Source: Escherichia phage KBNP1711
Sequence record: NC_023593.1
Reading direction: 5' to 3' (one strand)
DNA length: 64,000 nucleotides
Below, piece by piece: positions 8,544 to 62,064 of the stretch. Both the position numbers and the translations under genes were made by a program. Each line of letters begins with the position of its first letter. The stretch's first letter is position 1. The notes below the pieces were generated by a model. That model was not told the DNA's origin and did not search any database. It saw only the letters and a program-made list of their open reading frames with translations.

Positions 8544-9578
8544 ATGGCATATGGAATATGGACAAGACCTGTTGGTCCAGGTCCGGCGGCACCTGCTGAC
8601 ATTTACATCGATAGTGGTAGCACGTTTCCTCAACTCAAGAATAGAGTTAGCGGTAACTTTGCATTTAGTGGAAACATATGTGACCTCCCTATAAACGGGT
8701 GGGATGGAAGTGGTCAAATAGTTATTGTCCCGACAGGTTCTGTGGTATGGGAAAGATACATACCGCCTAATGTGACCTCAGACGTATACTGGATAAACAA
8801 TATCTCAGTTATTAATAACTCTACTTTTCGAGTTACTATGGATTATAATGTTAATGGGTGGGTCTTTGATATGGCTTTTAATGTATATCAGATATGGCCT
8901 AGAGCTAATAGAAACTACGGAATTACTTTTTCTAACACAGCTGATTACTTCTCTATTTCTGACTCTGGCACTGTTGGTCAGTGTATCTGGGCTTGGGAAG
9001 GTGATATAAACGGCTCTCTTCAGATACCAGATATTGGAGGTTTTGATATGAGCCGGGCAACTGTTTATGCAAACTGGAGTCACGGAGGGGCTGGGTTGTT
9101 GTATAACCCATCTAACAGAGTTGTTTATGTGTACCAAAACAGATCTCACGATAATAGTAACACAAACCAAACAGGGTCTATTGGTGGTGTTAGGATTGCT
9201 GTTTTCTGCGATGGTTCTGGAGTACCAACTCACAACGGTGGCCTAAATATCTTTTCCCCAAATGGGTCTCAGTGCGTATTCTCTACCTACAGAACCCCTT
9301 TTAGTGTTGAAGGGTTTATGCCTATGAGTGGAGGTAATACATCTCTGGCCTATCCAATGATACCACTGTCTTATGGGGCTGGGGCTATACGAGGAAGTGC
9401 TAGTGGTTGGTACTTTCAACACACAAGATCTCATATGATGAATGGATCTTCTTTTGGGACAGGGTATGGAAGAATGATATACTCTTGGTCAAATCAGTAT
9501 GATCTCGGTGGTGGGGGTGCTCTAGGATTAAGTATTCCGGTATTAGACGCCAAGAAGATTTTTAGAAGCATACAATAA
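8544..9578 (+). CDS. hypothetical virion protein
   Basis: 344-aa ORF tightly coupled to neighbours in the structural operon. Confidence 0.4.
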   Translation: MAYGIWTRPVGPGPAAPADIYIDSGSTFPQLKNRVSGNFAFSGNICDLPINGWDGSGQIVIVPTGSVVWERYIPPNVTSDVYWINNISVINNSTFRVTMDYNVNGWVFDMAFNVYQIWPRANRNYGITFSNTADYFSISDSGTVGQCIWAWEGDINGSLQIPDIGGFDMSRATVYANWSHGGAGLLYNPSNRVVYVYQNRSHDNSNTNQTGSIGGVRIAVFCDGSGVPTHNGGLNIFSPNGSQCVFSTYRTPFSVEGFMPMSGGNTSLAYPMIPLSYGAGAIRGSASGWYFQHTRSHMMNGSSFGTGYGRMIYSWSNQYDLGGGGALGLSIPVLDAKKIFRSIQ

Positions 9579-12430: not shown

Positions 12431-14095
12431 ATGCAACAAACTTCATACGCGTACCTCCGCAGTCGAGACCCACGCAATCAGATTTATGGTGTAAATCAGG
12501 GAGGGGCACAAGCCTCTCCTTATGTTCCTCGTCCTGCTTACCCACAAGCAGATATGTCTGTTTATACCCGTCCTAATATGGCTCCTGCTGGATTAGCTGG
12601 ATTGGTTTCTCAGGCTAACGAAGATCAAGAAGCAATGCTTGGTCCAAACAAACAAATTGTTCAGGGTGCTAACATCCAACCTGATATCCCTAACGAAACT
12701 CCTGTAGCAGCTCCTCAGTCAGCTTCTCCTTTTGCTAACGATGAAAGCATGGTTGCTGCTGGCCTTTCTCCAGAAACTGCTTCTCAAGAGTTCTCAGACC
12801 CTCTGCCGGTAAGTGCTCCTCCTAAACCGTTGGAACCTACTGATACAGAGTTTACTCAAGACCAAGTTAAACAGGCACAACAGGTTATGTCAACCCTTTC
12901 TTCTGGTTTACCTGAAGCTGAAGGTATGGCAGGTGCTTCTCGTAGCGCTGACCAAGAACGTGTTAACAAGGATTTGATGGAAGTGGCTAAGGCTAAGAAT
13001 CCGATGGAAGAGTGGGGTAAGCTACAGAAACAACCTTTCTATCAGAACTCTAGTTTCTATACAGGCTTGATGGGTGTAGGTCTTTCTATCATGTCCGGTA
13101 AATCCCCTATTGAAGCTTTCCAGATTGGCTCTGGTATGGCTGCACAGGATGAGACTAAGAATCAACTTGAAGCTAACCGCGAATCTCTTATCGAACAAGG
13201 TTACTCTCCAGACTCAGTTGCTGCTGCAATTGCTACTGGTGACCCTTCTGCTTTGAAGATTCGTCAGATTAGCCCTCAAGAGAAACTTGCTTTGTCTGCT
13301 ATTGAAGATGAGAGAGCTAACCGTGAATGGGACAGACGTCAGCAGGTTAACGAACAGTCTATGAGTCGTAGAATGGATGCAACTCGTCAGGCTGCTGAAC
13401 AGCGTGCACAAGAACAGTTTGCTCGTCAGAAAGATCTTATCAACTATCGTGATAAAGTGAAAGCTGATCGTGCTGAACAGATGGCTCAGAGTTTTAACTT
13501 TAATACGAAAGAGATTCGTAACGCCCAGAACACTGCTGAAGGCACGATTGCTAAACAGTGGGCAGAGAAAGGTGGTCTGTTTAACCAGTCTCATAAAGAC
13601 TTGGACTTGGCTGATCAGGCAGTTAAGGATAAAGATTATCAGACAGCTCGTTCTGCTTACATGCAAGCAATTATGAACTCCGCAAGAGCTGAAATTGGTT
13701 CTACTCGTTCTCTAACTGAAGAAGACTTACGTCACTTTGCAGAAGACCCTTCGATCTTTGTTAAGGTCGGTAATACTTGGTCTCTGAAAGGTGGGTACCG
13801 TCCCACTGATGCCGCTCTTGCTTATGCTCGTAAACAGGCAACTGTTGGTCACACTTCAGCGATGAAGGGTGTTAAGGATGCTAAGAGGGATACTATCAAT
13901 GCTTATGTGGGTTCTGGTATGGATAAGAAACGTGCTACTGCACTTGTTAACCGTGCTATACCTTCTGGTGGTTTCTATGACCCGCTGGGTACATTTGAAG
14001 CACAGGCAGAAGAGGCTGTTGGTGGTGATGCTACTAATCCACGCCTGAATGGTGCTCTTTCAGCTTCTGAAGATACTAGCTGGTTCACTCAATAA
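12431..14095 (+). CDS. hypothetical virion/internal protein
   Basis: ATG 12431 after taggaga RBS; the track start 12368 overlaps the upstream gene and is rejected. Confidence 0.45.
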   Translation: MQQTSYAYLRSRDPRNQIYGVNQGGAQASPYVPRPAYPQADMSVYTRPNMAPAGLAGLVSQANEDQEAMLGPNKQIVQGANIQPDIPNETPVAAPQSASPFANDESMVAAGLSPETASQEFSDPLPVSAPPKPLEPTDTEFTQDQVKQAQQVMSTLSSGLPEAEGMAGASRSADQERVNKDLMEVAKAKNPMEEWGKLQKQPFYQNSSFYTGLMGVGLSIMSGKSPIEAFQIGSGMAAQDETKNQLEANRESLIEQGYSPDSVAAAIATGDPSALKIRQISPQEKLALSAIEDERANREWDRRQQVNEQSMSRRMDATRQAAEQRAQEQFARQKDLINYRDKVKADRAEQMAQSFNFNTKEIRNAQNTAEGTIAKQWAEKGGLFNQSHKDLDLADQAVKDKDYQTARSAYMQAIMNSARAEIGSTRSLTEEDLRHFAEDPSIFVKVGNTWSLKGGYRPTDAALAYARKQATVGHTSAMKGVKDAKRDTINAYVGSGMDKKRATALVNRAIPSGGFYDPLGTFEAQAEEAVGGDATNPRLNGALSASEDTSWFTQ

Positions 14096-14160
14096 GACCT
14101 AAGTCCTGCCTTCTATAATGTATATAGGGGGTAGGACATTTTTATTTATAAGGAGACGTT

Positions 14161-17100
14161 ATGGCTAACATTAAATCTTGGGAAGAAGCATCGAAAAGCC
14201 CCAAGTATATGAATGCAACTCCTGAGCAACAGGCTCAGTTGAGAGAGCAATATAAAGCGGCAGGTGGTACAATCCCTGAAGATAAGCCAGTACAACCACA
14301 ACAAGAAGAGCGTGGCTTAGTTGGTGAGTTCGCTCAGGGAGTGTCTAATGCTATCGAATCTGGTGGAGCTAGTATTGCAGCTAGTACCGCTCGTGGTTTA
14401 GGTGGTCTGGTTGAAATGGGTGAGAACGTTCTCGGTTCCCAAACAAGTTATGGTAAAAGAATTCAAGATAACGCAAAACAAGTATTAGAAAAGCGTATGG
14501 CTGGTATCGAGGATGGCTTTGGTAAGACTGCTGGGCAGTATGCTGGAGTGGCTGCTGATATTGGTTTGACGGTTGCTAACCCAGCTTTAGCTGCTGGTGT
14601 TATTGCGGGTCGTGAAGCAGGTCGTGCTTATGCAGACCAGACTCCAGAAGAGGGAGAAGACAAGTCAGTGTTAGATGCTGCTCTTGTTGGTGGTGCTAAC
14701 TTTGCAGCTCAGAAGATTCTTCCGGGTTTTACAGGAACATCTGAATCTACTTTAGGTCGTATTGGTCAGAGTGCTGCTTCTAACGCCGTGGCTGGCGCTA
14801 AGGGTGGTGCTCTCGTAGGTGCTGCTGAAGCTCAGAACAAATATGGTGATGACACTACACTTGCCAATGTACTAGAAGGTGCAATTGATGAAGGTGTTGC
14901 TGGTGCTGCTTATGGTGGTGCTATCGGTGGTGTTCATGGTGCGATTAGTCGCCCTAGTCCTCAAGTGTTTGATAAGACTCCTGAGAATGTTAAGACTGAT
15001 ATCTCCGCTGAAGATGAAGCAATTCGTAGTGCGAAGAATGCTGATGAACTCCGTGAAGCTTACTCTCAAGCCGATACTGCTAACACAGCTTCCGCTCTTA
15101 ACCTGCTAGACCAGAACGATTTCCGTATTACAGATGCTGTGGCTATGGATTCTCCAGCTGCTCAACGTATCCTTAATACTGACCAGACTCGTGCTGAGAA
15201 AGCTGCTTCCTCTCTTACAGAGCGTTCTAACATTCCGGGTCTTAATCCTCTTGCTTCTCCAAGTAAGGTCAAGGGTAAAGCTTTTGCGGATAACGAACAT
15301 AACCAGAAGCAAGCTGTAGCAATGAAAGATGCAATGGCTGACTACACTAAAGACAACACCAAGACTCTTAATGATGTTCTTGATAACCTAGACCGAGAGT
15401 TGAATGACCTTCGTGTTCGTGGTGACTTTACTGGTAGTGCTATTGACATTAAGAATCAGACTCGCAATGATCGTGATTTCATTGATGCTTACAAGAACTT
15501 CTACACTGAAGCAAACAGATTCAAAGCTCGTGATGGTGAAGACTTTAATAACTTTGTAGAGAAAGCTACTGAACTACAGAAACTTGCTGACAATGTTTCT
15601 CCAGAGATGAAGAAAGCTATTGGTGGTTTGAAGAAACTCAAAGGTATGCCTGAAGGTTTCAACCCTATCCAAGATGCCTTTACTCTGAACAACACAGCTA
15701 AGCTAATGAGTAACCAAGACCGTGGTTGGACGACACTGACAGATGATGGTTTCCGTGAAGCCTCTTCTCCAAGCTTTGTTATGAATACCCTAGGTGCTGC
15801 TAAGTATGCTCTGAACCGCTTCTCTTCAGAGAGGGCTAGGTCTCAACGTGCTCGACAGCAGGATTCAAATAGTGAAGCAATTCGCTCTTTGGCTCGTGGT
15901 GATTTAGAGGTTGCTCGTGCTCGAAGTGCAGCAGCAAAAGCACGCGAAGAAATGGAAGCCGAACCGGTTGTTGATGACGTCCAATTTAAGACGCAAGCTG
16001 ATGACCAAAATATGGCTGGTTCTGAACCCTCTTCTCCAGCTACTGTGACGGAAGATTTCTCTCCTTCTCCAGCTCCTTTAACTGCTCGTGATTTGGTTGC
16101 TCAAAGGCGTGCTATCCGACAGGCGGAACAACGTCGTGCAGAGGAAGAAGCACAAGCTGCTCAGAATGCTCCAGTTGAACCAGAAGCTCCAGCAGAAACT
16201 CTGCCTACGCGTAACCCTCTTGAGGAACGTAGAGTGCAAGAAGCTGAGATGGAACAACAGCGTGCAGCAGAAGAGGCTGCTAAAGCTCCTGAGACGCCCG
16301 TAGAAGAGCCTACAGCTAAAGCTGAGCCATTACCTGCTCGTGCTCCTAAAGCTCCTAAGGAAGCTGCTCCTGAGGTTAAACCGGCTACTGGTGTAGAGCG
16401 TCTTGCTGCTATGTCAACAGCTGCTCGTCAGGCTACTAAAAACCGTGCTGAACGTTTTGCTCGTTCTCTGTATACTGCCGGTGCTAAAGCTAAAGCTACT
16501 GCGGAAAACTTCTTGGCTTATAAAGGGGACCCGAAAGAGCTGATGCGTCGTATCCGTCAGGAAGACCAAGCGAACAATGCTGCTCGTCATGAAGAGATGG
16601 CTCGTAACCAATTAGCTTCTCAGCAAGGTATTGCAGCTGCTAAGTCTAACCGAGTCCGTTCTGCATTCTCCGATTGGGTTAAAGAACGTGGGCTACCTTC
16701 TGAAATCGCCTCTAAAGCTCTTCGTGCTGAAGAACGTGGATTAGACGGTAACGTGTCAAGTCTAGACTCTCTGAAGCGCAGAGCTGAGCGTATGTATCAG
16801 AAAGAGCGTGATGATGAGTTTGATAGGATGTATCGTGAAGCTCTGGAAGAAAATAAAGCTTTCGATAAGAAAGATGCACCTAAGCTGAAAGATCAGAAGG
16901 CTGAGTTCCAGTCAGAGATTGATTCTCTGCTTGAGAGCGAACCTCTTCGTCCTGCTCAGAAAGATGCAATGCGTAAGATGATGAGTGATTTTGTTGATGG
17001 GAAGTTTAAAGCGGCTGAGAAAGCTGGAAGGGAAGAAGCTTTAGAGGTTGGTCAAATGAAGGACTTGTGGGATGGATTTATTAATACCTACAATCGTGAA

Positions 17101-18582
17101 GTTGGCATGTTCAATAAAGCTAACAAGAACTCTCAGTATGAAGCAGCAGCTAAGCATCTACAAGCTCGTGAAGAACGTCTTACCTCTTTACGTAACAGAG
17201 CAGAAGCTCGTGCTCAAGCGAAAGCTACAGCAGAAGCTGAACGTCAGTCACTCGAAGCTATTGCTGGTCAGAAGACTGAGATAGAGAAGATGTTTGATGC
17301 GTTACCTAAACCTGTCCGCGAGGCTCAGGAAAGCCGTACTCTGAAACAGCTTGCAGCTCACCATGATAAGAACTCCCCTGTTCCTCCAGAACGTTTCCGT
17401 AGTATTATCGAACGTATCCACAACGCAGAGTCTGACTACCTTGATCGTAAGCGTCGTCTCACTGATGCAGAGGAAGATGCTCGTGAAGCTAAGTGGAACA
17501 AGATGTATGAACAAGCAGAGGAGATGAACCGTAAGTTCGATATAGATGCTCGTGTATCTCGTGATAAGAGCCTCAAAGAAGCCCAGGAGCGACAGAATGA
17601 TCTCATGGCAGTACAACGCCAACGTGATGACATTCACAGCCGTCTGGTGCGTTCTATCGAAGATAAGGGCATACCTAAAGCTGATGCTGAAGCATTTGCT
17701 GGTTCTTATATGGATAATCGTTATGCTCTTCTTGAAAAACCTATGACCCCTACCGAACATCAGAATGCTCGTGCACGTATTGAGTCCGATGTAGAGAAGT
17801 TTGCTAAGAAGTATGAAAGCTTGTCTCCTATCGAGAAAGACGTGGTTAAGATTACTGGTGATGTGGAAGGTAAACTGGATGGGTTGGATGCTGAGACTGT
17901 GAAGGCAGTTGAGGAAGCTAGGAAGGTTGACTCTGATATTAAGAAACTTCAGGATGAAGAGTTGGAGATGGAGAAAGTCCGTTCAGCTTTACCTGATGAT
18001 GAAAAGTCTCAGGCAAATTCCGACATTCTGGAAAGCATTAAAAAACAAGAAGATAAGTTTGCAGGGAAGGTTGAGAAGGCATTCTTGGAAGGCAAGGACT
18101 TGAAGGAACTGGCTAGTGTTGCAGAGGTTCTGGATAGGGTTCATGGTGCTGACAAGGCTGGGAACAACCGTAGATTTGTTCGTGCTCTACAGACTGCTGC
18201 TGACAACAAGAAGAAGTATGGTGATAATCCGGTAGCTTGGTTTAGTGCTGATGATTACTCTGCTATTGCTAAACTTGGTGCTGCATCAGCGGGTGGTAAC
18301 AAATCAAGAGCGTTGGAGAAGATCTTTGGTTCTACAGCAGATCAAGCTAAGGCTAAGCTTTTGGGGAGAGATGATGTAGCGAAGATTAGACGTGTGATTG
18401 AAGCGAATCCTGAAATCAAGATTCCTTCTTACAAGACTACTACTCGTCAAGAGTATTTACAGTTCTTGGAGAAGTATAATGATGAGGGAGTGTTGAAAGT
18501 CAAACGTGGTTCTCTGTCTGACAAGTTGGAAAGGAATAAGCGTCAAGCTAGACTTCGTGTTAGAGTTCGCTCGAAAGAGTAA
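14161..18582 (+). CDS. large internal virion/ejection-type protein (1473 aa, Ala/Glu/Lys/Arg-rich, coiled-coil)
   Basis: AAGGAGA RBS; last gene of the + strand operon, immediately before a strong terminator. Confidence 0.5.
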   Translation: MANIKSWEEASKSPKYMNATPEQQAQLREQYKAAGGTIPEDKPVQPQQEERGLVGEFAQGVSNAIESGGASIAASTARGLGGLVEMGENVLGSQTSYGKRIQDNAKQVLEKRMAGIEDGFGKTAGQYAGVAADIGLTVANPALAAGVIAGREAGRAYADQTPEEGEDKSVLDAALVGGANFAAQKILPGFTGTSESTLGRIGQSAASNAVAGAKGGALVGAAEAQNKYGDDTTLANVLEGAIDEGVAGAAYGGAIGGVHGAISRPSPQVFDKTPENVKTDISAEDEAIRSAKNADELREAYSQADTANTASALNLLDQNDFRITDAVAMDSPAAQRILNTDQTRAEKAASSLTERSNIPGLNPLASPSKVKGKAFADNEHNQKQAVAMKDAMADYTKDNTKTLNDVLDNLDRELNDLRVRGDFTGSAIDIKNQTRNDRDFIDAYKNFYTEANRFKARDGEDFNNFVEKATELQKLADNVSPEMKKAIGGLKKLKGMPEGFNPIQDAFTLNNTAKLMSNQDRGWTTLTDDGFREASSPSFVMNTLGAAKYALNRFSSERARSQRARQQDSNSEAIRSLARGDLEVARARSAAAKAREEMEAEPVVDDVQFKTQADDQNMAGSEPSSPATVTEDFSPSPAPLTARDLVAQRRAIRQAEQRRAEEEAQAAQNAPVEPEAPAETLPTRNPLEERRVQEAEMEQQRAAEEAAKAPETPVEEPTAKAEPLPARAPKAPKEAAPEVKPATGVERLAAMSTAARQATKNRAERFARSLYTAGAKAKATAENFLAYKGDPKELMRRIRQEDQANNAARHEEMARNQLASQQGIAAAKSNRVRSAFSDWVKERGLPSEIASKALRAEERGLDGNVSSLDSLKRRAERMYQKERDDEFDRMYREALEENKAFDKKDAPKLKDQKAEFQSEIDSLLESEPLRPAQKDAMRKMMSDFVDGKFKAAEKAGREEALEVGQMKDLWDGFINTYNREVGMFNKANKNSQYEAAAKHLQAREERLTSLRNRAEARAQAKATAEAERQSLEAIAGQKTEIEKMFDALPKPVREAQESRTLKQLAAHHDKNSPVPPERFRSIIERIHNAESDYLDRKRRLTDAEEDAREAKWNKMYEQAEEMNRKFDIDARVSRDKSLKEAQERQNDLMAVQRQRDDIHSRLVRSIEDKGIPKADAEAFAGSYMDNRYALLEKPMTPTEHQNARARIESDVEKFAKKYESLSPIEKDVVKITGDVEGKLDGLDAETVKAVEEARKVDSDIKKLQDEELEMEKVRSALPDDEKSQANSDILESIKKQEDKFAGKVEKAFLEGKDLKELASVAEVLDRVHGADKAGNNRRFVRALQTAADNKKKYGDNPVAWFSADDYSAIAKLGAASAGGNKSRALEKIFGSTADQAKAKLLGRDDVAKIRRVIEANPEIKIPSYKTTTRQEYLQFLEKYNDEGVLKVKRGSLSDKLERNKRQARLRVRVRSKE

Positions 18583-21380: not shown

Positions 21381-22022
21381 TTAAGACCCTTGGAATTCTT
21401 CTTTGTCGAAGTGCTTCTCTACCACATACTCATACAGATCTTTATACTCTGCATAACGACGGTAGAATGTACCGTGTGAGATGCCTAATTCTTTCTGAAT
21501 GGAATCGTGAGGGATACCTAAGAAGAGCATTGAGAACATGCTTGCGAGCTTCTGTGTGTCCATTGTATCACTCAAATCTTGGAAGAAGTAGAAGATACGA
21601 GATTCCATGAAAGGGTCCCCAACTGAATCATGCTTATTAACTGCATATTCCAGAGGACCTTCTGAGTAAATGTCAGGGTTGTTAAACATATCTGCTTCTG
21701 GAATAGCATAGATACGTCGATCACCAACTGTCTGTCGATTAGAACGGATAGACCAGATGATATTCTTCACACGATAGGTCATGTGCTCAATCTCTACCTC
21801 ACCTTCTAGTAGAAGCTCTTCTTGCTTGGAATAGATGAAACGCCAAGCATTAAGCAACACCTCTTGAGCTACATCCTCTGCTTCATGATAGTCACGAATG
21901 TCGTACATAAAGAATTTGTGAACCACTTTCCAGTTCACCTTATAGAACTCATCGAAGGTTGGGAAGTATTTGATTGGAATACCGTGAATACGATACCGAG
22001 TAGGTGTTGTTTTCTTAGCCAC
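21381..22022 (-). CDS. sigma-70 family (ECF-like) sigma factor-like protein
   Basis: [16 protein letters not shown] resembles sigma region 2; C-terminal HTH-like [15 protein letters not shown]. Confidence 0.55.
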
Positions 22023-22052
22023 AAGTTATCCTTAACTTTGTTGGTTTTAAAT

Positions 22053-22262
22053 TTATACGCTGATCAAGTAAATAGCCGTTTCGGGGTTTGGTGTGTGTTG
22101 TTGTGGTGTTCCGAGGATACGAATCCACTCATCGTTTTCTGGTTCGTAATACAACCAAGCATCTGTGAATTTGAAAGTTTTTCCAAACACTTTGTTATCG
22201 TGTTCCCAAATTACGTGAACATTTCGAGTTCCTTGTGGTAGAACTGATTGCGCTCTAATCAT
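22053..22262 (-). CDS. hypothetical protein
   Basis: 69-aa ORF packed between neighbours. Confidence 0.35.
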   Translation of the reverse strand: MIRAQSVLPQGTRNVHVIWEHDNKVFGKTFKFTDAWLYYEPENDEWIRILGTPQQHTPNPETAIYLISV

Positions 22263-22519
22263 TGGATACCTCTTTCTTTCAGAGCCTCTATTAACCCGTT
22301 GTGGTTAGCAGCACACTCTGTGTATTGGTCTTGATACCACTCTAGTGTTGTTGATAGTGCAACACCTTGTGGACCTTCTAGCATCGGTAAATCTACCCTA
22401 CACTCAGCTTTTAGGTTTGTTGGTAAGGGCATTAATTGCCTGCTGTTGTCGCTCATTGAACAACTTGACATACTCATCACTAGCGCAAACATTATAAAAA
22501 ACTGGCTTAGTCTTTTCAT
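22259..22519 (-). CDS. lipoprotein, o-spanin candidate
   Basis: MKRLSQFFIMFALVMSMSSC signal with lipobox-like MSSC followed by Pro-containing segment; starts inside the upstream gene in another frame. Confidence 0.4.
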   Translation of the reverse strand: MKRLSQFFIMFALVMSMSSCSMSDNSRQLMPLPTNLKAECRVDLPMLEGPQGVALSTTLEWYQDQYTECAANHNGLIEALKERGIQ

Positions 22520-22754
22520 AGTGCATCTCTTTGTAAACTGTCTCAGTGTTCTTCTTCCAGTCTGATAGACCATTGAGAACTCTCATAGCAACCTCATCAG
22601 CTGCTTTGTTTCTCTCTATCTCTAATTCTTGCTGATGTTTCTCTTTGTCCAGATTGTTACTATCTGTTTGGTATTCGTTAAACTTCATACCACCAAAGAA
22701 CACAAGAGCTGAAAAGACGATGAACCCTAAGTTATCGCTTAACGTGTTTTGCAT
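22404..22754 (-). CDS. membrane-anchored coiled-coil protein, i-spanin candidate
   Basis: ATG 22754 with GGAGA RBS; one N-terminal TM segment (LGFIVFSALVFFGG) then charged helical region; overlapped by the lipoprotein ORF. Confidence 0.45.
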   Translation of the reverse strand: MQNTLSDNLGFIVFSALVFFGGMKFNEYQTDSNNLDKEKHQQELEIERNKAADEVAMRVLNGLSDWKKNTETVYKEMHYEKTKPVFYNVCASDEYVKLFNERQQQAINALTNKPKS

Positions 22755-22772
22755 ATTATCTCCAACGAAAAA

Positions 22773-22790
22773 AGCCACCCGAAGGTGGCT
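22773..22790 (-). terminator. - strand terminator after SSB gene (agccacc-cgaa-ggtggct)
   Basis: 7-bp stem with T-run on the - strand side. Confidence 0.45.
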
Positions 22791-22812
22791 AAACTATTAC
22801 AAGGAGAGATAC

Positions 22813-23553
22813 TTAGAACGGAGATTCGTCTTCTTCAAAAGTAGACTCAGGCTCACGGTCGATAGTAGGGATAGAAGCAACCGGCTCTTTCTGCTCGTTC
22901 TCAGAAGCCTTAGTGACTTCACGACCAGCGAGAGGAATGTTCTTAGCGTCATTAGCTTGGGTAAGCAGGTTACGCTGGAATGGGAAGATTACCTGGTAAG
23001 CAGCTACGTTATCATCTGTTTCAGCATACGGTTCGAAGAAGACCAAAGGACTGCGAGCAGCAGCAACAGCTTCACGATACTTGGTAGGAATCGGAGTAAT
23101 CTGTTTGATAGAATTCTTAACTTCACCAGCTTTGTTGGTGTAAGAGTTAATCAGAACGTTTACAGGCTGACCTAACAGCATTTCTTTAAACCAAGCTAAA
23201 TCACCTTTCAGTGCTTGGATGCTAGGGTCAACCATCTTAATTAGGTTGAGAATACCAGAGTTCTTAGCTCGTGGGTTTACATCGAAGCTCTTAAATTGAC
23301 ATGCAGGGCGCGGGTCAAGAGCGTTGCCTTCAGAGTCCTTACCGGTTGCATCAACACTAATCAGTTCAAACGCCAAGTCCATACGGAAAGCTGGGTTCTT
23401 AGGAGTAACTGCTTTAGTTTTAGGGTCAACCCAAGGGTCACGATTGTGAACACCAAGACCAACAACACGAACGATACGAGCTTCGTACTCACCATCAGGG
23501 ATTACGTCGTAGTTGGATTTACGGGAAACGGACATAGTTGGGATAGAAGACAT
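22813..23553 (-). CDS. single-stranded DNA-binding protein (T7 gp2.5-like)
   Basis: Acidic C-terminal tail ending EEDESPF; AAGGAA RBS. Confidence 0.6.
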   Translation of the reverse strand: MSSIPTMSVSRKSNYDVIPDGEYEARIVRVVGLGVHNRDPWVDPKTKAVTPKNPAFRMDLAFELISVDATGKDSEGNALDPRPACQFKSFDVNPRAKNSGILNLIKMVDPSIQALKGDLAWFKEMLLGQPVNVLINSYTNKAGEVKNSIKQITPIPTKYREAVAAARSPLVFFEPYAETDDNVAAYQVIFPFQRNLLTQANDAKNIPLAGREVTKASENEQKEPVASIPTIDREPESTFEEDESPF

Positions 23554-23778
23554 ATTTTAATTTCCTTATTTAATTTAAGATTGTTGCTCACTTTGAGCGG
23601 TTATGTATAGTATACATTACACCTATACCGATAAGAGTGCTATGTAGTATAAGCATCAGTGGTAGTAGATATTGACTACTAGTAATGTATATATTGTATA
23701 GATGATAATTCTATTGCAGGCTTGTATATTGGGCAATTCTCAGAATCCCTTGCAAGTACCGAAGGGCAGGAGACACCT

Positions 23779-23843
23779 GCGAGATAAAAATAGAGAATTA
23801 AGGAATCCTTGATTTAGGTTGTGGGGACTCCTAGGGACTTTGA
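23779..23843. repeat. perfect 11-bp inverted repeat AAATAGAGAAT / ATTCTCTATTT around a 43-bp core
   Basis: Read directly in the 414-bp ORF-free region upstream of the SSB gene. Confidence 0.5.
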
Positions 23844-23967
23844 TTCTCTATTTAAAAGATTAATAATTACTTACTACCTAAATAGTTAACTAACTTACTT
23901 AAACCAAATTCAATAATAATAGATAAAAAGATTATTCCTAAGAAAGCTAAGATGTAAAGAACATAAG

Positions 23968-27100: not shown

Positions 27101-27586
27101 TCAATGTGTGTGATTCCAGTTTAATCCTATCTGACAATCAGATGCCAGAGGACATTCCATCTTGAGGTACTCACCAGCTTTCTTAACACAAAGCTCTGTA
27201 AGCTCTTTTAGCTTTTGTGCATCATTACGGTGAACAGAGAACTGCCCTTCATCGTGCATGTCAATAACCTTCGCACAACGAACACCATCACGCTCAATCC
27301 ACTTGTTAAGGAAAAGCATGGCATACTTCATAACAATCGCACCAGCACTCTGTAATAGGGTATTCAGTGCTTTATGAACCATTACCTTACCTGTTGCATC
27401 ACGTCTCATTGTAACACGACGACCATCAACACCCAAGATATAACCTTGAGCTGCCTTCTCTGTCATACGTTCAATAAGAATTGCAATACAAGGATTCTCT
27501 GCCAAGAAACGTGCTCTCATTACTGCACCTTCTTCAGAGCCTCCACCAACGATAGAACCGAGCTTAGCATCACCTGCCCCATCAAT
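27101..27586 (-). CDS. DNA polymerase (family A, T7 gp5-like), exon 2 / C-terminal part
   Basis: Reading frame open upstream of the track Met gives ...IDGAGDAKLGSIVGGG... then HKALNTLLQSAGAIV and HDEGQF (motif C), colinear with T7 DNA polymerase after motif B; 5' boundary approximate. Confidence 0.65.
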   Translation of the reverse strand: MDGAGDAKLGSIVGGGSEEGAVMRARFLAENPCIAILIERMTEKAAQGYILGVDGRRVTMRRDATGKVMVHKALNTLLQSAGAIVMKYAMLFLNKWIERDGVRCAKVIDMHDEGQFSVHRNDAQKLKELTELCVKKAGEYLKMECPLASDCQIGLNWNHTH

Positions 27587-28367
27587 AGTTCAAGCAAAGG
27601 CGCTACTCTTTGCTCCGTTCTCTTATGAACTGCTTACAGTTTCCTGTAAGATCGGACTATATCTTCATCTCCACCTTTACGTGCTGAGAGACAGGCGCTT
27701 CCGTAACACTTGTTACGTACTCCCTTCCGGGATAGTCTCTGAACTTTCCGTGACACAAACTTTTCTACATAGATCAATGAACTGAGCATCAGATAGTTTA
27801 CCTTTTGCATTATTCACTTCCCAAGTTACCCATTGGACATTTCCAATTTCGTAACCTTTCGAATTATCCTTCCTATCTAAAGAAAGTTTATTCGGATGTC
27901 CGCTGACGAAAGATAGTGAATCTCCTGTCAAGGCACATTTGTAGTTTTGCTGAGAAAGAAGCTCGAATAAATAGTCTTGAGTAATCGTGAACTCAAAACC
28001 CCTTTCTCTAGCTCTGTGATGGGAGTTGTGATATCTCTCACGAACCGCTCCACCCCAAGTTTGTCGATATTGTCCCATAGCAGCAGATGCTGCACTTCTG
28101 TTTCGACGTCTCCACTCATTTGAAGCAATGAGAGCACAATTTTTTACATTGACATTGCTTTCCATCTTTACTCTTAGATGAATTATGGAAACTGTCGAGT
28201 GGCTTTTCTTCGCCACAGCTTGAACATATCTTTGTCATAAACACCTCCTTGTGTTGATGTTTATGTCACGGCTTAGCTGCTGATTGGCATATCTTTCGAC
28301 TTAGCTTTCCAGCAATTCACCTGTTTTGCTTCTGCACATTTCTATGCAGTGAACCAATTATTTAGTT
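27587..28367 (-). mobile_element. intron (group I-like) carrying an HNH homing endonuclease ORF, inserted at polymerase motif B
   Basis: Polymerase frame broken by stops between ...RDNAKTFIYAF and IDGAGDAKLG...; intervening ~780 nt has its own RBS and endonuclease ORF; boundaries +/- about 10 nt. Confidence 0.55.
27713..28238 (-). CDS. intron-encoded HNH homing endonuclease with apparent frameshift
   Basis: ATG 28238 with AAGGAGGTG RBS encodes MTKICSSCGEEKPLDSFHNSSKSKDGKQCQCKK then stops; HNH domain (HNSHHRARERGFEF...DRKDNSKGYEIGNVQWVTWEVNNAK) continues in another frame after an A6 run near 28140. Confidence 0.6.
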
Positions 28368-29729
28368 AAAGGCATATATAAATGTCTTCGCATTGTCACG
28401 AGTAGGAAGACCAGCAAGTCTCTGATTATGAGAATGGATATCACCTTCTAACAGAATATCACGATACATAACAGCAGAAGCTAAACCACGTTCAGCTAAT
28501 GCTTTCTTACCAGCGTTACCTTCTGCAATTGCTTCAGCAAGCATGTCTCTACACTCTTTAATGAGGTAGTGAGCAAGCATACGAAGCTCTAATCCAGAAC
28601 CATCATAACCTAGGAAGAGTTCTCTACCAGCTGGTACATAATACTTATATAACCCTACTGGTTTGTCTTTCTTTCCGGGTTTTCCACGTTCGTAGATAAC
28701 GTTTGTATTTTTTCGTAAGTAACACCCATCAGGGATATTGTTGGTAATGATGAAAGGATAGTTATGACTATCATCTGTGGAGTAGTTAGATTGAAATAAA
28801 CTCCTACACTCGTGACCAAACAGACCGCGAGAAGGAATATTAACAACAATGCGATGTTTAAAACGAAATGTCGGAGTAGCGCAGCTATTAGCTTCCGCTG
28901 AGAGTTTACCATCTGGACGTTCCTTATCAATCAGTCCATTAATCAAGCCTAGTCTGTGAGCCGCTACAACACGTCTCTTAAGCAGACTTCCCACCTTACC
29001 TAGATCACCCTCAAGACCTTCTTCAAGAGTCTCTTCGAGGTTTGTAGGAGCTGTGGGCCACTTGTTCGAAGTAGCTAATGCTCTCTTAATTTCATCAAAG
29101 GTTACAGGTTTCTTCCTGTTAGGGTTTAAACCTAAACCAAAGACATAAGCCTTCATGTAGTTGACAGTTTTGTGACGAAAGTGCTTATCCAAGAATTTCT
29201 TGATATCAGCATCAACCATCTGAGCTGTCTGTCGCTCTTTCTCATTGCCACGCATCCAAGAGTTGTACCATTCTTGATACGTTCCACACTTACGCAAGGC
29301 TCGCTTAATCTCAAATGTGTTCCAAGGCTTCTTAGATGTATTAAATTCTGGAGGAAGAAAACCTTCATCCATCAGTGCTTCTTTAACTCGTGCATCCTTT
29401 GATGGGTCAAAGTCAACATACTCAACACAAGTAAAAGCTCCACCGATATCTTCCCTCTTTAACCCCACTCTGTCACAATATAATTGAGGCCACTTCTGAA
29501 GAGCACCAGTCTTCTTAAAGGGTTTCATGTAAGTAGAACCATCAACCCTCATCTTAGGTAACAGAGGAATCAGCTCTCTGTCGATGTTAACGATAATCTC
29601 TCTGAGAAGGTGAACATACCACCGTGCATTCCTCCGATTAAAGTTGACACCACTCTTCGCTTGCTTTGAAATTATATCAGCGACAGTCATCTCCGTTAAG
29701 AACGGAAGTACATCAGGGTTCTCCATCAC
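28368..29729 (-). CDS. DNA polymerase (family A, T7 gp5-like), exon 1: polymerase domain through motif B
   Basis: GYDGSGLELRMLAHY (motif A) and LPTRDNAKTFIYAF (motif B/O-helix) align with T7 gp5 GIDASGLELRCLAHF / LPTRDNAKTFIYGF. Confidence 0.7.
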
Positions 29730-30716: not shown

Positions 30717-31031
30717 TTAACTTGAGCTTAAAGCCCCTTTGCGACCGCCAGCTGATTTTCCAGCGCGATCTCCACTTTTGCCGCCAGCTGAACGATTTCC
30801 GCTGACTGTCTCAACACGTAAGTTGCTTGACGCATTAGAGCCTCCTGATTTAATGGCTCGTTTGTGTCCGACATCTTTACCTTTGAGTGCAGATTTTCCA
30901 ACGCGTTTTTCAACGATGCGACGTGCACGGTGGCGCTGAGCATCTCCGCTCTTACTTCCAACTCCCGTTTCACCTCTTGCGATGGCTGTACGTCTTTCTT
31001 GTGCATAATCTCTTTTAGCCTTATCAGTCAT
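30717..31031 (-). CDS. highly basic Gly/Ser/Lys/Arg-rich protein (possible nucleic-acid binding)
   Basis: AAGGAG RBS 6 nt before ATG 31031; overlapping alternative-frame ORF 30728..31006 lacks an RBS. Confidence 0.45.
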   Translation of the reverse strand: MTDKAKRDYAQERRTAIARGETGVGSKSGDAQRHRARRIVEKRVGKSALKGKDVGHKRAIKSGGSNASSNLRVETVSGNRSAGGKSGDRAGKSAGGRKGALSSS

Positions 31032-31102
31032 TTACAACTCCTTAATATATCAGTGTACACTAAGGAGTATACATTATGAGAGGGTAGCTTTAGTTGCCAG
31101 CT

Positions 31103-34485: not shown

Positions 34486-35070
34486 TTAGTAAGACACGTC
34501 ACCACTGGAGTGGGACATGTTGCTCTTGACGAAGTAACAGAACTTTCCAAGACCTTCATTAATTTCTTGAAGCATACTCTGATCAACTGGATAGGTGCAC
34601 AAGTCTGAATCAAACTCGTCCATCTTCTCAATGATACACATAAGAGTCATGCACATGTCAGAAAGCATACCGTCCATGTCGAGATCAGCGTTACCTTCTC
34701 GGAACCAAGCACAACCAAGATAGCTACTAGCTGTTGCATCCACTTTAATGCAGTGATAACGCATTCGCTCTGCTACCCGATCACCAGTTTCACGAGCATA
34801 ATCTTCTAGTTCATCGAACATACCGTGAACACCTTGGAAACCAGCTCCAGAGACGTTCCAGTGATAGTTCTTTGATTTGATGTGTAGAAGTTCAAGGTTA
34901 GCCTGCACACCACACAGGATGTGCTCTAGGCTGTTACCGCTAATCAATTTATTCATTCCCTCTAGACGAGAGATAGAAGAGTCAGTTGTAGAGAATGGGT
35001 TGCTAGAACCCACTCGTGTCAGTTCAGGTAAGTCGAAGACATTATTATGCATTAGGTTCATCTCCTTCAA
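34486..35070 (-). CDS. Dps-like ferritin-fold protein
   Basis: YHWNVSGAGFQGVHGMFDELEDYARETGDRVAERM matches the Dps helix B/C signature. Confidence 0.5.
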   Translation of the reverse strand: MKEMNLMHNNVFDLPELTRVGSSNPFSTTDSSISRLEGMNKLISGNSLEHILCGVQANLELLHIKSKNYHWNVSGAGFQGVHGMFDELEDYARETGDRVAERMRYHCIKVDATASSYLGCAWFREGNADLDMDGMLSDMCMTLMCIIEKMDEFDSDLCTYPVDQSMLQEINEGLGKFCYFVKSNMSHSSGDVSY

Positions 35071-35374
35071 GCTCAGTAGAGTTAGCTACATTTCGTTCCA
35101 GATTTGAGATTACCTGTTGGGTGATAACGATGCAGTTCTGTGGGTCAACTGACTTAGAACGTCCCATCTCAGGGTCATACACCTTAACACGTTTTGCTGT
35201 AGAACCAGTTACCTGTAATACCTTGAGAAGATAACCCTGATTCCCGATAGACCATGCAACAACATCACGATTCTTGATGAATCGACCAAGCATATCACGA
35301 TGATAGAACTGCTGCATAACCTTTGATTTATTAATCTCTTCGGCTGGCGGAGCCACTTTACTCAAATCTAACAT
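35045..35374 (-). CDS. hypothetical protein
   Basis: 109-aa ORF. Confidence 0.4.
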   Translation of the reverse strand: MLDLSKVAPPAEEINKSKVMQQFYHRDMLGRFIKNRDVVAWSIGNQGYLLKVLQVTGSTAKRVKVYDPEMGRSKSVDPQNCIVITQQVISNLERNVANSTELEGDEPNA

Positions 35375-35446
35375 TTCACTCTCTCCTGTTTAACACAATA
35401 TTCTTATACTGTATATACATTTGAGAGTGATCATATCTACTACCAA

Positions 35447-41178: not shown

Positions 41179-41361
41179 CTATGCTGTGAAGTTTTTGATT
41201 ACACCGCAAATAACATCTGTTTCAAACGTACCCACCAGAACATCGTCTCGGTAGAAGTTAATCGCTCTACCGTCTCGGTTAAAGTGATCTGCTTCAATGA
41301 GCATTGACTGTACCTGACCATCTGGAGTGGAGGTTCGAAAGATGACGTTATACTGACTCAT
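41179..41361 (-). CDS. hypothetical protein
   Basis: 60-aa ORF. Confidence 0.3.
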   Translation of the reverse strand: MSQYNVIFRTSTPDGQVQSMLIEADHFNRDGRAINFYRDDVLVGTFETDVICGVIKNFTA

Positions 41362-41600
41362 AAAGAAGTTACTCCCTTATCTTCTTGGGCGATAGAGATG
41401 ATACGACTCACACACTGCATTGAGTACTCATCTCCACGCTTTAGGAACGTTACGATAGCAGAGAATTGATTACCAATCATCCGCTCATTTGTGATACCGA
41501 ACTCTTTGCAGAGTTCTTTCAGTTTGCTACGAGAACCAATAATCAGAGGCTCTTTTTCTTCAGTCATTCCGCGACTAATCAAATCTTCAATAGACAACAT
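41358..41600 (-). CDS. hypothetical protein
   Basis: 80-aa ORF. Confidence 0.35.
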   Translation of the reverse strand: MLSIEDLISRGMTEEKEPLIIGSRSKLKELCKEFGITNERMIGNQFSAIVTFLKRGDEYSMQCVSRIISIAQEDKGVTSL

Positions 41601-52239: not shown

Positions 52240-52551
52240 CTATTTAAGTTTGAGGCTAATGTTGAGGTGCATACATGCCCTGTTCTGTACAGCAGCATAA
52301 CTTCTACCGAGCATGTCAGCCATTCTCTGAATAGACATGAACCCAGCATTACGGATAAGGAACTGATCTTCTTCTTTAGACCACTTAACTCGGATTACAG
52401 CTCTAGAGATACCGAACTTAGTGCAAGCTGTATTAACTGCATTCTCCGTTACATTCATAATCTGAGCAACTTCTTGAACGGAGTACTCTTTGATTAGTCT
52501 CCGAAGATTTTCAATCTGCATCGGAGTCCATATAGTTCTTCGTGCTTTCAT
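52240..52551 (-). CDS. DNA-binding protein with two tandem helix-turn-helix (Myb/SANT-like) repeats
   Basis: Two ~45-aa repeats each starting with W and containing helix-turn-helix-like segments. Confidence 0.45.
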   Translation of the reverse strand: MKARRTIWTPMQIENLRRLIKEYSVQEVAQIMNVTENAVNTACTKFGISRAVIRVKWSKEEDQFLIRNAGFMSIQRMADMLGRSYAAVQNRACMHLNISLKLK

Positions 52552-54196: not shown

Positions 54197-54271
54197 TGGC
54201 GTCCCCACTAGGACTCGAACCTAGAATGGATTTTTAGAAGAAATCTGTTATATCCTTTTAACTATAGGGAC
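54197..54271 (-). tRNA. tRNA-Arg (anticodon UCU)
   Basis: Hand-folded cloverleaf: 7-bp acceptor stem, D stem GTTA/TAAC, anticodon stem GATTT/AAATC with loop CTTCTAA, T arm CTAGG-TTCGAGT-CCTAG, encoded CCA. Confidence 0.8.
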
Positions 54272-60108: not shown

Positions 60109-62064
60109 CTTTCAATTGTAAGGGCACTATGCCCCGCTCTCTATGAGCTTTTTAAGTCGCCATTGACTTATCAATATCCACTCATTGTTAAGTAATTATT
60201 GATAAGTGGGGCGGTCTTATCAGAAGTTAACCTTGCCGCCCCTTTATCTGTGATGTTTCATCTGGTATCTTTAATTAGTCGCTATAAACGAAGCCGACCT
60301 GATAGCGATGATCAATCATCACAATAAGGCAGTGCGTCCGACTCTAATTAGTTACTTTATTGTAACCGTCGGCAATATCGTCTACTTTGCTTTCGCTCTC
60401 GCCTATCCTTTTATACTAACTCTCAATCGCTAACCATCGCCCACTACGGGAGGTTATTGCGAAAGAGTCATTAGCCGTCTAATATTCCGACGTTTTATAT
60501 CTTTCGGCAAGTTTACTACATAACCCGACTATGTACTTTCATCTTGTGATGAATCTCAAGCCGTTCGCATCGTAAACGTTCACACTAAACCTTATTGTTA
60601 AATAGCAATTTGCCACTTTTTAACCACTCCCCGCCGCTCTCAATTGAGCGTTAATTAGTCGGGCTTGCCTACCCTGATTAACTTCTTTCACTGTAGCACC
60701 ATGTTAGCGATGGCCGCCGCTACCCTTAACCGTGGGCGATTAGTTTAAGCCTTTGCGTGTACTCAATGAATCCGCTTATCAGTGGTGACGTTTCCAGTTA
60801 AGGGATTGTGAGATTGTTTTCTCTGATAGTCTAGAGAATCTCACACCGTTTTATCTGGTATGCTGTCCGATGGTTATTATCTTCCAGCATATTTAACCGA
60901 TATAGGAGAATGTTTAAATTGTTAAAGAGCGGTAAATCTATCAACGTGCTTTCTCACGTTATGCAACTGTTAGCCGTTGTTACGCTTTTCACTGAAGCGG
61001 TGATTTGCTTAAGTGGTGCTCATTATGGACCATGTTGTTTTTGCCGTCAATCACTTTTTTAATCTTTTTCGTCGTTCCCGCTATTGGGAGGATATATCAA
61101 CCCGCTTTATTGGGTTGAAGATTAAGCGATGAGGCTTAACCCATGATTCATACTGTTAAAGAGCGTTTAGCCTTTTATAGTGTCTGCTAATCACTGCATC
61201 ATTAAAGGCTTACTTATTCATTAACGGGGCGCCTAAGCCCGAACTACCCGCTGCACTATGTGCCACCTTTCCCGCGATACGTTGATTTGGGAACTAGTTA
61301 ACGTTGTTTTGTTAACTTGTGGTTAGTATGGACTACCTTAACCACGTTTGCAACCTCTTTTTTATCATCTTCTTTTATTCTTTTCCCTTATCTCGCGTGA
61401 ATCTATGCGAAAGGGCAAGATGATAAGTCTGATTTGTCTTTTAGGAATCTAGTGCGCTTTCAAGCATTGACCATTTGAAAGTATCGAACAAATGAGGCTT
61501 ATTTTGTTGCTCATCGTCCGCCTGTTCACGTATGAATCAGGAATCAATTCTAGTGGTCAACTAAGCGCCTTATAGTAATGACGTTCCCGCCACCTGTAAG
61601 ACAAATCATATTTTTAAAGAGCGGGATTTTTCAAGTCATCGCTGACTATGCTCACTATATATCAGGCTTTTTCCGGTGTCAATACTCTTTTTCAAGTATT
61701 TTCACTTTCTAGCCTGATTTTTAAAGAGCGGGGCAATTTCTTGCCTTGTATGTTTTACATCGTACCCGATGAAATGAAGTATACATTAATCAGATGAGGT
61801 TGCAATAGGGTAAAGCAAATTATTTTAAACTTTTTGAAAGGTGGGAAGTATAAGAGAATGCGCGCGGGATAACATACCCAAAACAGGCTGTAAATCACTT
61901 TCTAACGTCCTGTAAGCCATTCTAATGAGCTAAAAGGAGGCAAGGTATACAATCACCTTAGAAAAGAAAAAAGCCTCATAGCGAGGCTTACAGGAAGGAT
62001 TAGAGAATCAGATAGATTATGACCATAGGCATGACCACGGCACAATATAAGAGAAAGATTAAGC
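60109..62064. other. 1.9-kb ORF-free region with dispersed short repeats; candidate origin, terminal or regulatory region
   Basis: No ORF of 60 aa or more in any frame; four TTAAAGAGCG copies (60931, 61165, 61614, 61731); inverted repeat CTTATCAATA/TATTGATAAG at 60176-60214. Confidence 0.5.

Follow-up and report, generated by a model that had tools for sequence, protein, structure and literature searches.

A phiEco32 gp36-type sigma factor and its promoters in Escherichia phage KBNP1711

A stretch of 64,000 nucleotides from Escherichia phage KBNP1711 (NC_023593.1; hereafter the window) contains an open reading frame (ORF) that had been predicted from the sequence alone to encode a sigma-70-family factor redirecting host RNA polymerase (RNAP). 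The ORF was confirmed and lies on the minus strand (Table 1). It begins with a GTG codon at position 22022, with the ribosome-binding site TAAGGA 6 nt upstream, and encodes a polypeptide of 213 amino acids consisting of a sigma2-like N-terminal domain (approximately residues 1–103), a linker and a sigma4-like C-terminal domain (approximately residues 139–213). The window phage is a phiEco32-like coliphage of the subfamily Gordonclarkvirinae with Escherichia phage EP335 as its nearest relative. The DNA surrounding the sigma ORF had 96.5% identity to EP335 (genus Nieuwekanaalvirus) and about 82% to phiEco32 and other Kuravirus phages, and all matching phage records (97 of 97) were from phiEco32-like coliphages or Shigella phages. 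By comparison with EP335 and phiEco32, the window lacks roughly 12 kb of the genome at the left and about 1 kb at the right; in these two phages the corresponding parts carry terminase, portal, scaffold, capsid and fibre genes, that is, packaging and virion functions only.

By both position and sequence, the encoded protein is orthologous to the product of phiEco32 gene 36, which is annotated as 'RNA polymerase ECF sigma factor' (ECF, extracytoplasmic function). It has the same length as phiEco32 gp36 and aligned with it from end to end, with 178 of 214 positions identical (83%). A phmmer comparison with the gp36 chain of a solved complex (PDB 9M7Y chain F) likewise extended end to end (residues 1–212, E=1e-121), and the protein matched PHROG 1740, 'RNA polymerase sigma factor', with E=4.8e-46. 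The gene neighbourhood is also common to both phages, with a 130-amino-acid ORF (phrog_289, 'GTP-binding domain') followed by kinase and exonuclease genes downstream. The window gene differs from its phiEco32 counterpart in its GTG rather than ATG start, in a divergent loop (residues 63–78) and in a divergent linker with one extra residue. The macro-domain gene 37 of phiEco32 is missing from the window; in its place, region 22023–22813 holds an ORF of 69 amino acids (22053–22262, minus strand) and overlapping spanin-like ORFs. In the RefSeq record of EP335 (NC_070979.1, 33498–34025) the sigma gene is annotated as a truncated 'hypothetical protein' of 175 amino acids beginning at an internal methionine. 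Both the ribosome-binding site and the N-terminus of the gp36 chain in the solved structure support the full-length start.

In phiEco32, the early genes are read by the host sigma-70 holoenzyme (PMC8948821, PMC4331800), and gp36 together with E. coli core RNAP forms a holoenzyme that directs transcription in vitro (PMC12276001). Electron cryo-microscopy (cryo-EM) of the RNAP-gp36-gp79-P68 open complex (Xu et al. 2025, PMC12276001; PDB 9M7Y) placed the N-terminal domain of gp36 like sigma2 on the clamp helices, the linker on the path of sigma3.2 and the C-terminal domain like sigma4 on the flap-tip helix, with gp36 residues reading the promoter bases -14A, -13A, -12T and -11G and also -37G and -34A. 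The second phage protein in this complex, gp79, inhibits the holoenzyme formed with sigma-70 and stimulates the one formed with gp36 (PMC8948821, PMC4331800); its N-terminus displaces sigma-70 region 4 and then docks on the C-terminal domain of gp36 (PMC12276001).

All 23 published contact residues of gp36 (PMC12276001) are identical in the window protein. They make up five groups, which contact RNAP (clamp patch and flap-tip groove), DNA (-10 readers and -35 readers) and gp79 (gp79 groove). For RNAP binding these include the acidic patch facing the clamp helices (D44, E47, E49, D50 and E54) and the groove for the flap-tip helix (M138, I142, F166, L167 and F204); for DNA they include the -10 readers E79, H80, Y83, R84, W90, S91, S94 and N95 and the -35 readers Y187 and R188. 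Seven of the DNA-reading residues (E79, Y83, W90, S91, N95, Y187 and R188) did not vary among 18 aligned members of the family, the most distant having 46% identity. A homolog of gp79 is encoded elsewhere on the minus strand of the window (Table 1). It retains 10 of the 13 published contact residues, and the remaining three carry the conservative substitutions L6I, V10I and W36F. This gene was left unnamed in the RefSeq record of EP335.

According to PMC4331800 and PMC8948821, both of which cite the primary mapping (Pavlova et al. 2012), six gp36 promoters have been mapped in phiEco32, upstream of genes 6, 13, 26, 40, 58 and 68, and share a single element, tAATGTAtA, located 6–8 nt upstream of the start site. 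P40, P58 and P68 are gp36-dependent, P68 being the promoter of the solved complex. In the window, exact copies of TAATGTATA occurred six times compared with 0.84 expected, a 7-fold enrichment, and none of 100 shuffled sequences reached six copies. Matches with one mismatch were not enriched as a class (19 vs 19.1 expected), and therefore only exact or syntenic sites were regarded as informative. The sites at 14116 (plus strand) and at 23611, 31068 and 35414 (minus strand) are situated in short spacers before the homologs of genes 26, 40, 58 and 68 and align base by base with the promoters mapped in phiEco32, and the element occupies the same genome positions in both phages; the equivalents of P6 and P13 lie to the left of the window. 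The P26 equivalent, 37 nt upstream of the gene for a virion protein of 1473 amino acids, differs from phiEco32 P26 at two of 80 aligned bases and has both the -37 purine and the -34 A. The P40 equivalent is conserved in seven phages and can be aligned with phiEco32 P40, and the P68 equivalent contains the same one-mismatch variant of the element as phiEco32 P68, its positions -40 to -28 matching those of the PDB 9M7Y promoter without a difference. All 12 conserved sites compared (12/12) had the two bases that gp36 contacts in the structure, a purine at -37 and an A at -34. In two metagenomic relatives, with sigma proteins of 46% and 67% identity, an exact copy of TAATGTATA is retained in the spacer that precedes the giant late gene.

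Two further exact copies of TAATGTATA were considered as promoters and rejected as probably incidental, both being absent from EP335: the copy at 8879 (plus strand) is inside an ORF and lacks the -34 A, and that at 61780 (minus strand) lacks both the -37 purine and the -34 A. The latter overlaps a sigma-70-like promoter (TTGCAA-16-TATACT; 61778–61805, minus strand) in the spacer that holds the early promoters. Sigma residue 80 is histidine in most family members and asparagine in P0014, P0016, P0017 and P0019; co-variation of this residue with the -11 base that it contacts was looked for, and a simple specificity switch was rejected because the relative L013, with N80, keeps the exact TAATGTATA. 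With respect to the -35 region, the late promoters (P13 and P26 of phiEco32 and the P26 equivalent of the window, 14092–14100) share the box TAAGACCTA, and the middle promoter P68 (35434–35446) shares the box TTGGTAGTAGATA with a divergent plus-strand site described below. Distinct upstream boxes might contribute to the timing of middle versus late transcription.

Table 1. Coordinates of the features of the window discussed in the text
Feature	Position	Strand	Description
Late promoter, P26 equivalent	14092–14124	+	-35 box ATAAGAC; TAATGTATA at 14116–14124, in a 65-bp spacer
1473-amino-acid protein	14161–18582	+	No Pfam match; PHROG match of unknown function only
Sigma factor gene, orthologue of phiEco32 gene 36	21381–22022	-	213 amino acids; full-length homology, PHROG 1740
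Middle promoter, P40 equivalent	23611–23643	-	Exact TAATGTATA at 23611–23619; -37A, -34A; upstream of ORF 22813–23553 (-)
Candidate seventh gp36-type promoter	23659–23691	+	-35 box GTGGTAGTAGATA; exact TAATGTATA at 23683–23691; divergent from P40
Nearly invariant non-coding block, ~165 nt	23698–23862	+	Downstream of the divergent promoter; seven-phage alignment
Middle promoter, P58 equivalent	31068–31100	-	Exact element; -37G, -34A; upstream of ORF 30717–31031 (-)
Middle promoter, P68 equivalent	35414–35446	-	Element AAATGTATA, -35 box TTGGTAGTAGATA; upstream of ORF 35045–35374 (-)
gp79 homolog	41358–41600	-	80 amino acids; tblastn 72.5% identity to phiEco32 gp79, E=5e-39; PHROG 8339, E=6e-49
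Tandem three-helix helix-turn-helix protein, early region	52240–52551	-	103 amino acids; internal repeat of two helix-turn-helix units
tRNA gene	54200–54271	-	Rfam tRNA, 57 bits; position matches the tRNA-Arg annotated in phiEco32 and EP335
Sigma-70-type early promoter cluster	61022–61682	-	ORF-poor spacer; consensus scan

The spacer at 61.0–62.0 kb contains a terminator and, on the minus strand, three good sigma-70-type promoters (61682–61654, with TTGACA-17-TATAGT; 61634–61605; 61050–61022), in agreement with the position of the three early promoters that have been described for SU10 and phiEco32 in the corresponding spacer (PMC4281155). The replication genes are broadly T7-like, comprising a DnaB_C primase-helicase, a family-A polymerase and a 5'-3' exonuclease, as the original prediction had stated, and its companion claim that the 64 kb encode no T7-type RNA polymerase also held: no match to an RNA-polymerase family was found among the ten largest ORFs of the window, and the complete genomes of relatives carry no such annotation. 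Three ORFs exceed 700 amino acids and encode a tail fibre with a Peptidase_S74 domain, a Big_2 (Ig-domain) protein and the 1473-amino-acid protein. The SU10 homolog of the last is an abundant virion component (163 kDa, 116 peptides), and the window protein is probably an ejected internal protein.

Based on the orthology, the identity of the contact residues, the partner gene and the presence and synteny of the promoters, all observed in the window, we consider it about 95% probable that the product of ORF 21381–22022 is orthologous to phiEco32 gp36 and is thus a strongly diverged member of the sigma-70 family that reprograms host RNAP to middle and late genes. The proposed redirection of host RNAP is thereby supported by experiments on a protein of 83% identity (PMC12276001, PMC8948821, PMC4331800). 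The expectation that the targets are probably late genes was borne out in part: the gp36-type element lies upstream of a plus-strand late gene at the P26 equivalent, but transcription of late genes only does not fit, since the P40, P58 and P68 equivalents precede middle genes. The proposed 'hybrid transcription strategy' amounts to the known strategy of phiEco32.

Binding, specificity, timing and the mechanism of gp79 in the window phage would, by analogy with phiEco32, be as follows. The host sigma-70 holoenzyme would transcribe the minus-strand early genes from the strong promoters in the 60–62 kb spacer, and the sigma factor and the gp79 homolog would be made. The gp79 homolog would bind on the outside of the RNAP clamp with its N-terminus in the RNA exit channel, displacing sigma-70 region 4 and so turning off host and early transcription. 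The phage sigma factor would then occupy the core enzyme, with the N-terminal acidic patch named above on the clamp helices and the C-terminal domain on the beta-flap tip, reading the strong element at -15 to -7 through the eight -10 readers and using Y187 and R188 for the weak -35 determinant, a purine at -37 and an A at -34. Re-docking of the gp79 N-terminus on the sigma C-terminal domain would stabilise the open complex. The predicted outcome is activation of the middle genes on the minus strand from the P40, P58 and P68 equivalents and of the late virion genes from the P26 equivalent and from P6 and P13, left of the window.

Several points weigh against this interpretation. The measured data come from phiEco32 and not from the window phage, and about 17% of the residues differ from gp36, mostly in the loop of residues 63–78 and in the linker. 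No sigma-70-type promoter was found in the approximately 470 bp directly upstream of the sigma gene; the nearest sigma-70-like candidate (22519–22491, minus strand) is inside a spanin-like ORF, the sigma-70 promoter predicted for gene 36 inside gene 37 of phiEco32 is absent from the window phage, and a strong terminator-like hairpin (22773–22790, minus strand; GC-rich stem and T-run) follows the gene-40 homolog, between the P40 unit and the sigma gene. Generic sigma profiles matched poorly. Pfam Sigma70_r2 aligned with residues 34–62 below threshold (18 bits compared with a gathering score of 24, E=0.0026), and the sigma70-ECF model TIGR02937 aligned with residues 23–191 (model positions 3–155 of 165) at 24.7 bits compared with a cutoff of 42.9. 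Neither Sigma70_r4 nor Sigma70_r4_2 matched the window protein, and a region 4 profile matched 2 of 18 family members, with E values of at least 0.0036.

These profiles also bear on the label 'ECF-like', which the original prediction had based on a region-2-like stretch and a C-terminal helix-turn-helix (HTH). The 14-residue stretch cited is present at residues 49–62, and Sigma70_r2 was matched by all 18 family members (best E=1.9e-5); the C-terminal HTH gave a weak HTH_23 match alone (residues 169–193, E=0.13), and all generic sigma and ECF profiles remained below their cutoffs on the window protein. A profile of the gp36 family searched against PDB reached bacterial ECF sigma factors (SigW, SigK, SigL and SigE) over region 2.1–2.2 alone (residues 7–65, E at least 0.015). 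Profile recognition of regions 2 and 4 had been named both as a check and as a possible refutation of the prediction; with region 2 sub-threshold and region 4 essentially unrecognised, the call would be borderline on that alone. The sigma function is settled instead by the biochemistry and the cryo-EM structure of the orthologue. The window protein is classed here as a member of the gp36 family and a distant homolog of sigma-70-family factors; by sequence it is not convincingly a member of the ECF group, and 'ECF' is a loose label for it. No anti-sigma annotation or family match was found among the neighbouring genes (two neighbours were scanned with profiles), and regulation of the window sigma is, by analogy with phiEco32, assigned to the distant gp79 gene and not to a neighbouring anti-sigma factor.

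The poor profile scores leave some room for an ordinary HTH regulator (TetR-, TrpR- or YerC-like) with a chance likeness to sigma region 2, to which one source comes close by labelling a 96%-identical protein 'uncharacterized protein YerC', and weak TetR_N and HTH_23 matches in the C-terminal part would fit. However, the 83%-identical orthologue occupies the sigma2 and sigma4 positions with a sigma3.2-like linker in the cryo-EM structure and transcribes in vitro (PMC12276001), every RNAP-contact residue is conserved and the Sigma70_r2 match recurs in the whole family, so that such a regulator is already effectively refuted and of negligible probability. A second alternative is a sigma-like decoy that binds core RNAP for host shut-off without promoter specificity, late transcription being achieved by other means, for example by a cryptic polymerase. 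Other podophages (N4 and crAss-like phages) carry cryptic RNA polymerases in their virions, and the 1473-amino-acid virion protein, without a recognisable domain, would be the candidate here. Against a decoy, the DNA-reading residues are invariant across the family, the element is conserved at syntenic promoters as well as enriched, the phiEco32 gp36 holoenzyme initiates from these promoters in vitro with early genes using the sigma-70 holoenzyme, and the shut-off role is already taken by gp79; we regard a decoy as extremely improbable.

A narrower role is conceivable in which the sigma factor serves late genes only and the middle genes are transcribed by the sigma-70 holoenzyme with the help of the double-HTH protein. 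The authors of the SU10 study noted sigma-70-like promoters overlapping middle promoters (PMC4281155), and the HTH protein is a very conserved product of the early region. Yet, of the four gp36-type promoters of the window that are syntenic, three stand before middle genes on the minus strand, P40, P58 and P68 of phiEco32 depend on gp36, with P68 in the solved complex itself, and no data link the HTH protein to RNAP. This division of labour is very unlikely, if marginally less so than the regulator or the decoy, and reprogramming of host RNAP to both middle and late genes by a gp36 orthologue remains our interpretation.

The double-HTH protein (52240–52551) had been proposed as a regulator with two Myb/SANT-like HTH repeats. 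Its two repeats are real; nothing, however, ties it to the sigma circuit. Sigma70_r4_2 matched two stretches of the protein (30.3 bits compared with a cutoff of 25.7), which is a generic HTH match, and Pfam Myb_DNA-binding matched a short stretch (residues 54–67) below threshold (21.5 vs 24.4 bits). It also matched PHROG 323, 'transcriptional regulator, D5-like' (E=2.4e-28) and is distantly related to the DNA-binding modules of HNH endonucleases from phages. An AlphaFold model (predicted local distance difference test score of 78) contained two three-helix bundles, the best PDB fold matches of which were Reb1, Cef1/CDC5L, Tc3 and Myb3, proteins with tandem Myb-type or bipartite HTH, all with E of at least 0.09 and none significant; judged on this model, the Myb/SANT-like description appears fair. 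The protein is 96–100% identical in many phiEco32-like phages and absent or diverged in others. In homologs of 61–70% overall identity, repeat 2 (residues 57–103) is almost invariant and repeat 1 varies freely, an asymmetry in the alignments that suggests a fixed target for repeat 2.

Besides the P40 equivalent, a 313-bp spacer (23554–23866) with 92% identity to phiEco32, compared with about 82% for the flanking genes, contains a divergent plus-strand site that is a candidate for a seventh gp36-type promoter. It is antisense to the genes around it and outside the list of six promoters as given in the two accounts cited above. The -35 region of this site, TGGTAGTAGATA, is the same as in P68. 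Across seven phages neither box varies, while the spacer between them does, and the site is also found in phiEco32 (36704, plus strand) and EP335 (35797, plus strand). The composite TGGTAGTAGATA-N11-WAATGTATA occurred exactly twice, on opposite strands, in three of four matching IMG/VR contigs, and a divergent pair with a TGGTAGT box is present in L013, the sigma of which is 67% identical. Additional copies of the element, with one mismatch, make up a palindrome together with P40 (23601–23619) and a tandem with the divergent site (23683–23700), and a direct repeat, GGGACT-N4-GGGACT, is located at 23825–23840.

The nearly invariant block downstream of this candidate promoter is apparently non-coding: no conserved reading frame was found at 23698–23862, where relatives differ by indels of 1–2 nt, and a plus-strand ORF of 36 amino acids (23702–23812) was rejected as coding because these indels break its frame. 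In seven related sequences, the first (5') hairpin of the predicted plus-strand transcript had two compensatory pair changes together with G-C to G-U changes that pair on the plus strand only. Single-sequence fold z-scores of the block were modest on both strands (-1.7 plus, -2.0 minus), and a long hairpin followed by a U-run (23789–23853) is terminator-like on the minus strand, ahead of P40. No Rfam family matched the block, and no report of such a plus-strand transcript was found in the literature searched. Comparative sequence data thus allow the tentative suggestion, which we hold to be possible and on balance doubtful, that phiEco32-like phages carry a seventh gp36-dependent promoter firing into the block of approximately 165 nt, the product being either a structured RNA of antisense or non-coding type or a transcript that primes replication at an origin activated by transcription. 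For the origin reading there is an analogy in the primary origin of T7, which contains a promoter. The divergent promoter and the invariant block, a lead and not a result, may be the only new items here; if real, they would extend the otherwise little-studied molecular biology of this phage group by a non-coding RNA or an origin function.

Elsewhere in the window, the family-A DNA polymerase gene is split into an N-terminal ORF of 455 amino acids (28362–29729, minus strand) and a C-terminal ORF of 139 amino acids (27101–27520, minus strand), the halves being about 840 bp apart with an ORF of 167 amino acids without a family match between them (27713–28216). The gene is uninterrupted in phiEco32 and EP335, and in the distant relative L013 it is split by Endonuclease_7 and HNH_3 ORFs. 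The interruption is probably a homing-endonuclease or intron insertion. The tRNA gene (Table 1) was the sole match in an Rfam scan of the window.

The mechanism and structure of the sigma system have already been worked out in detail for phiEco32, and the value of identifying it here lies in correct annotation, given the truncated 'hypothetical protein' and the unannotated gp79 homolog in EP335. The gp36/gp79/promoter module is conserved in the genus Nieuwekanaalvirus with all gp36 residues of the 2025 cryo-EM study retained, which supports its use as a portable orthogonal transcription system. Temporal switching through a replaced or remodelled host sigma factor on host core RNAP is also seen with T4 gp55/gp33, T4 AsiA/MotA and SPO1 gp28 and gp33/34. 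The T4 and SPO1 proteins and their promoter motifs are unrelated to gp36; T4 AsiA remodels sigma-70 without displacing it, and the T4 late sigma factor is split and tethered to the sliding clamp.

The bacterial group IV (ECF) sigma factors, such as SigW (5WUQ), SigK (4NQW), SigL (6DV9) and RpoE, resemble the gp36 type in consisting of sigma2 and sigma4 without a sigma1.1 or sigma3 domain and in their size of about 200 amino acids, and they have weak similarity to the window protein in region 2.1–2.2, where the core-binding helix has EDVAQEV. In contrast to these factors, the gp36 structure has helix alpha1 rotated by approximately 70 degrees, a shorter alpha4 in sigma4 and a flap-tip helix rotated by approximately 100 degrees; ECF promoters are bipartite (-35/-10), whereas the gp36 promoter is dominated by one 9-bp element, and the gp36 system has the co-activator gp79 and no anti-sigma partner. 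Closer in genome organisation is Salmonella phage 7-11, which has a phiEco32-like layout and transcribes its late genes via host core RNAP with the sigma factor SaPh711_gp47. However, this protein has about 15% identity to gp36 and recognises a different promoter, GTAAtg-N16-aCTA, in a phage without gp79, host shut-off or a middle class of genes (PMC8948821).

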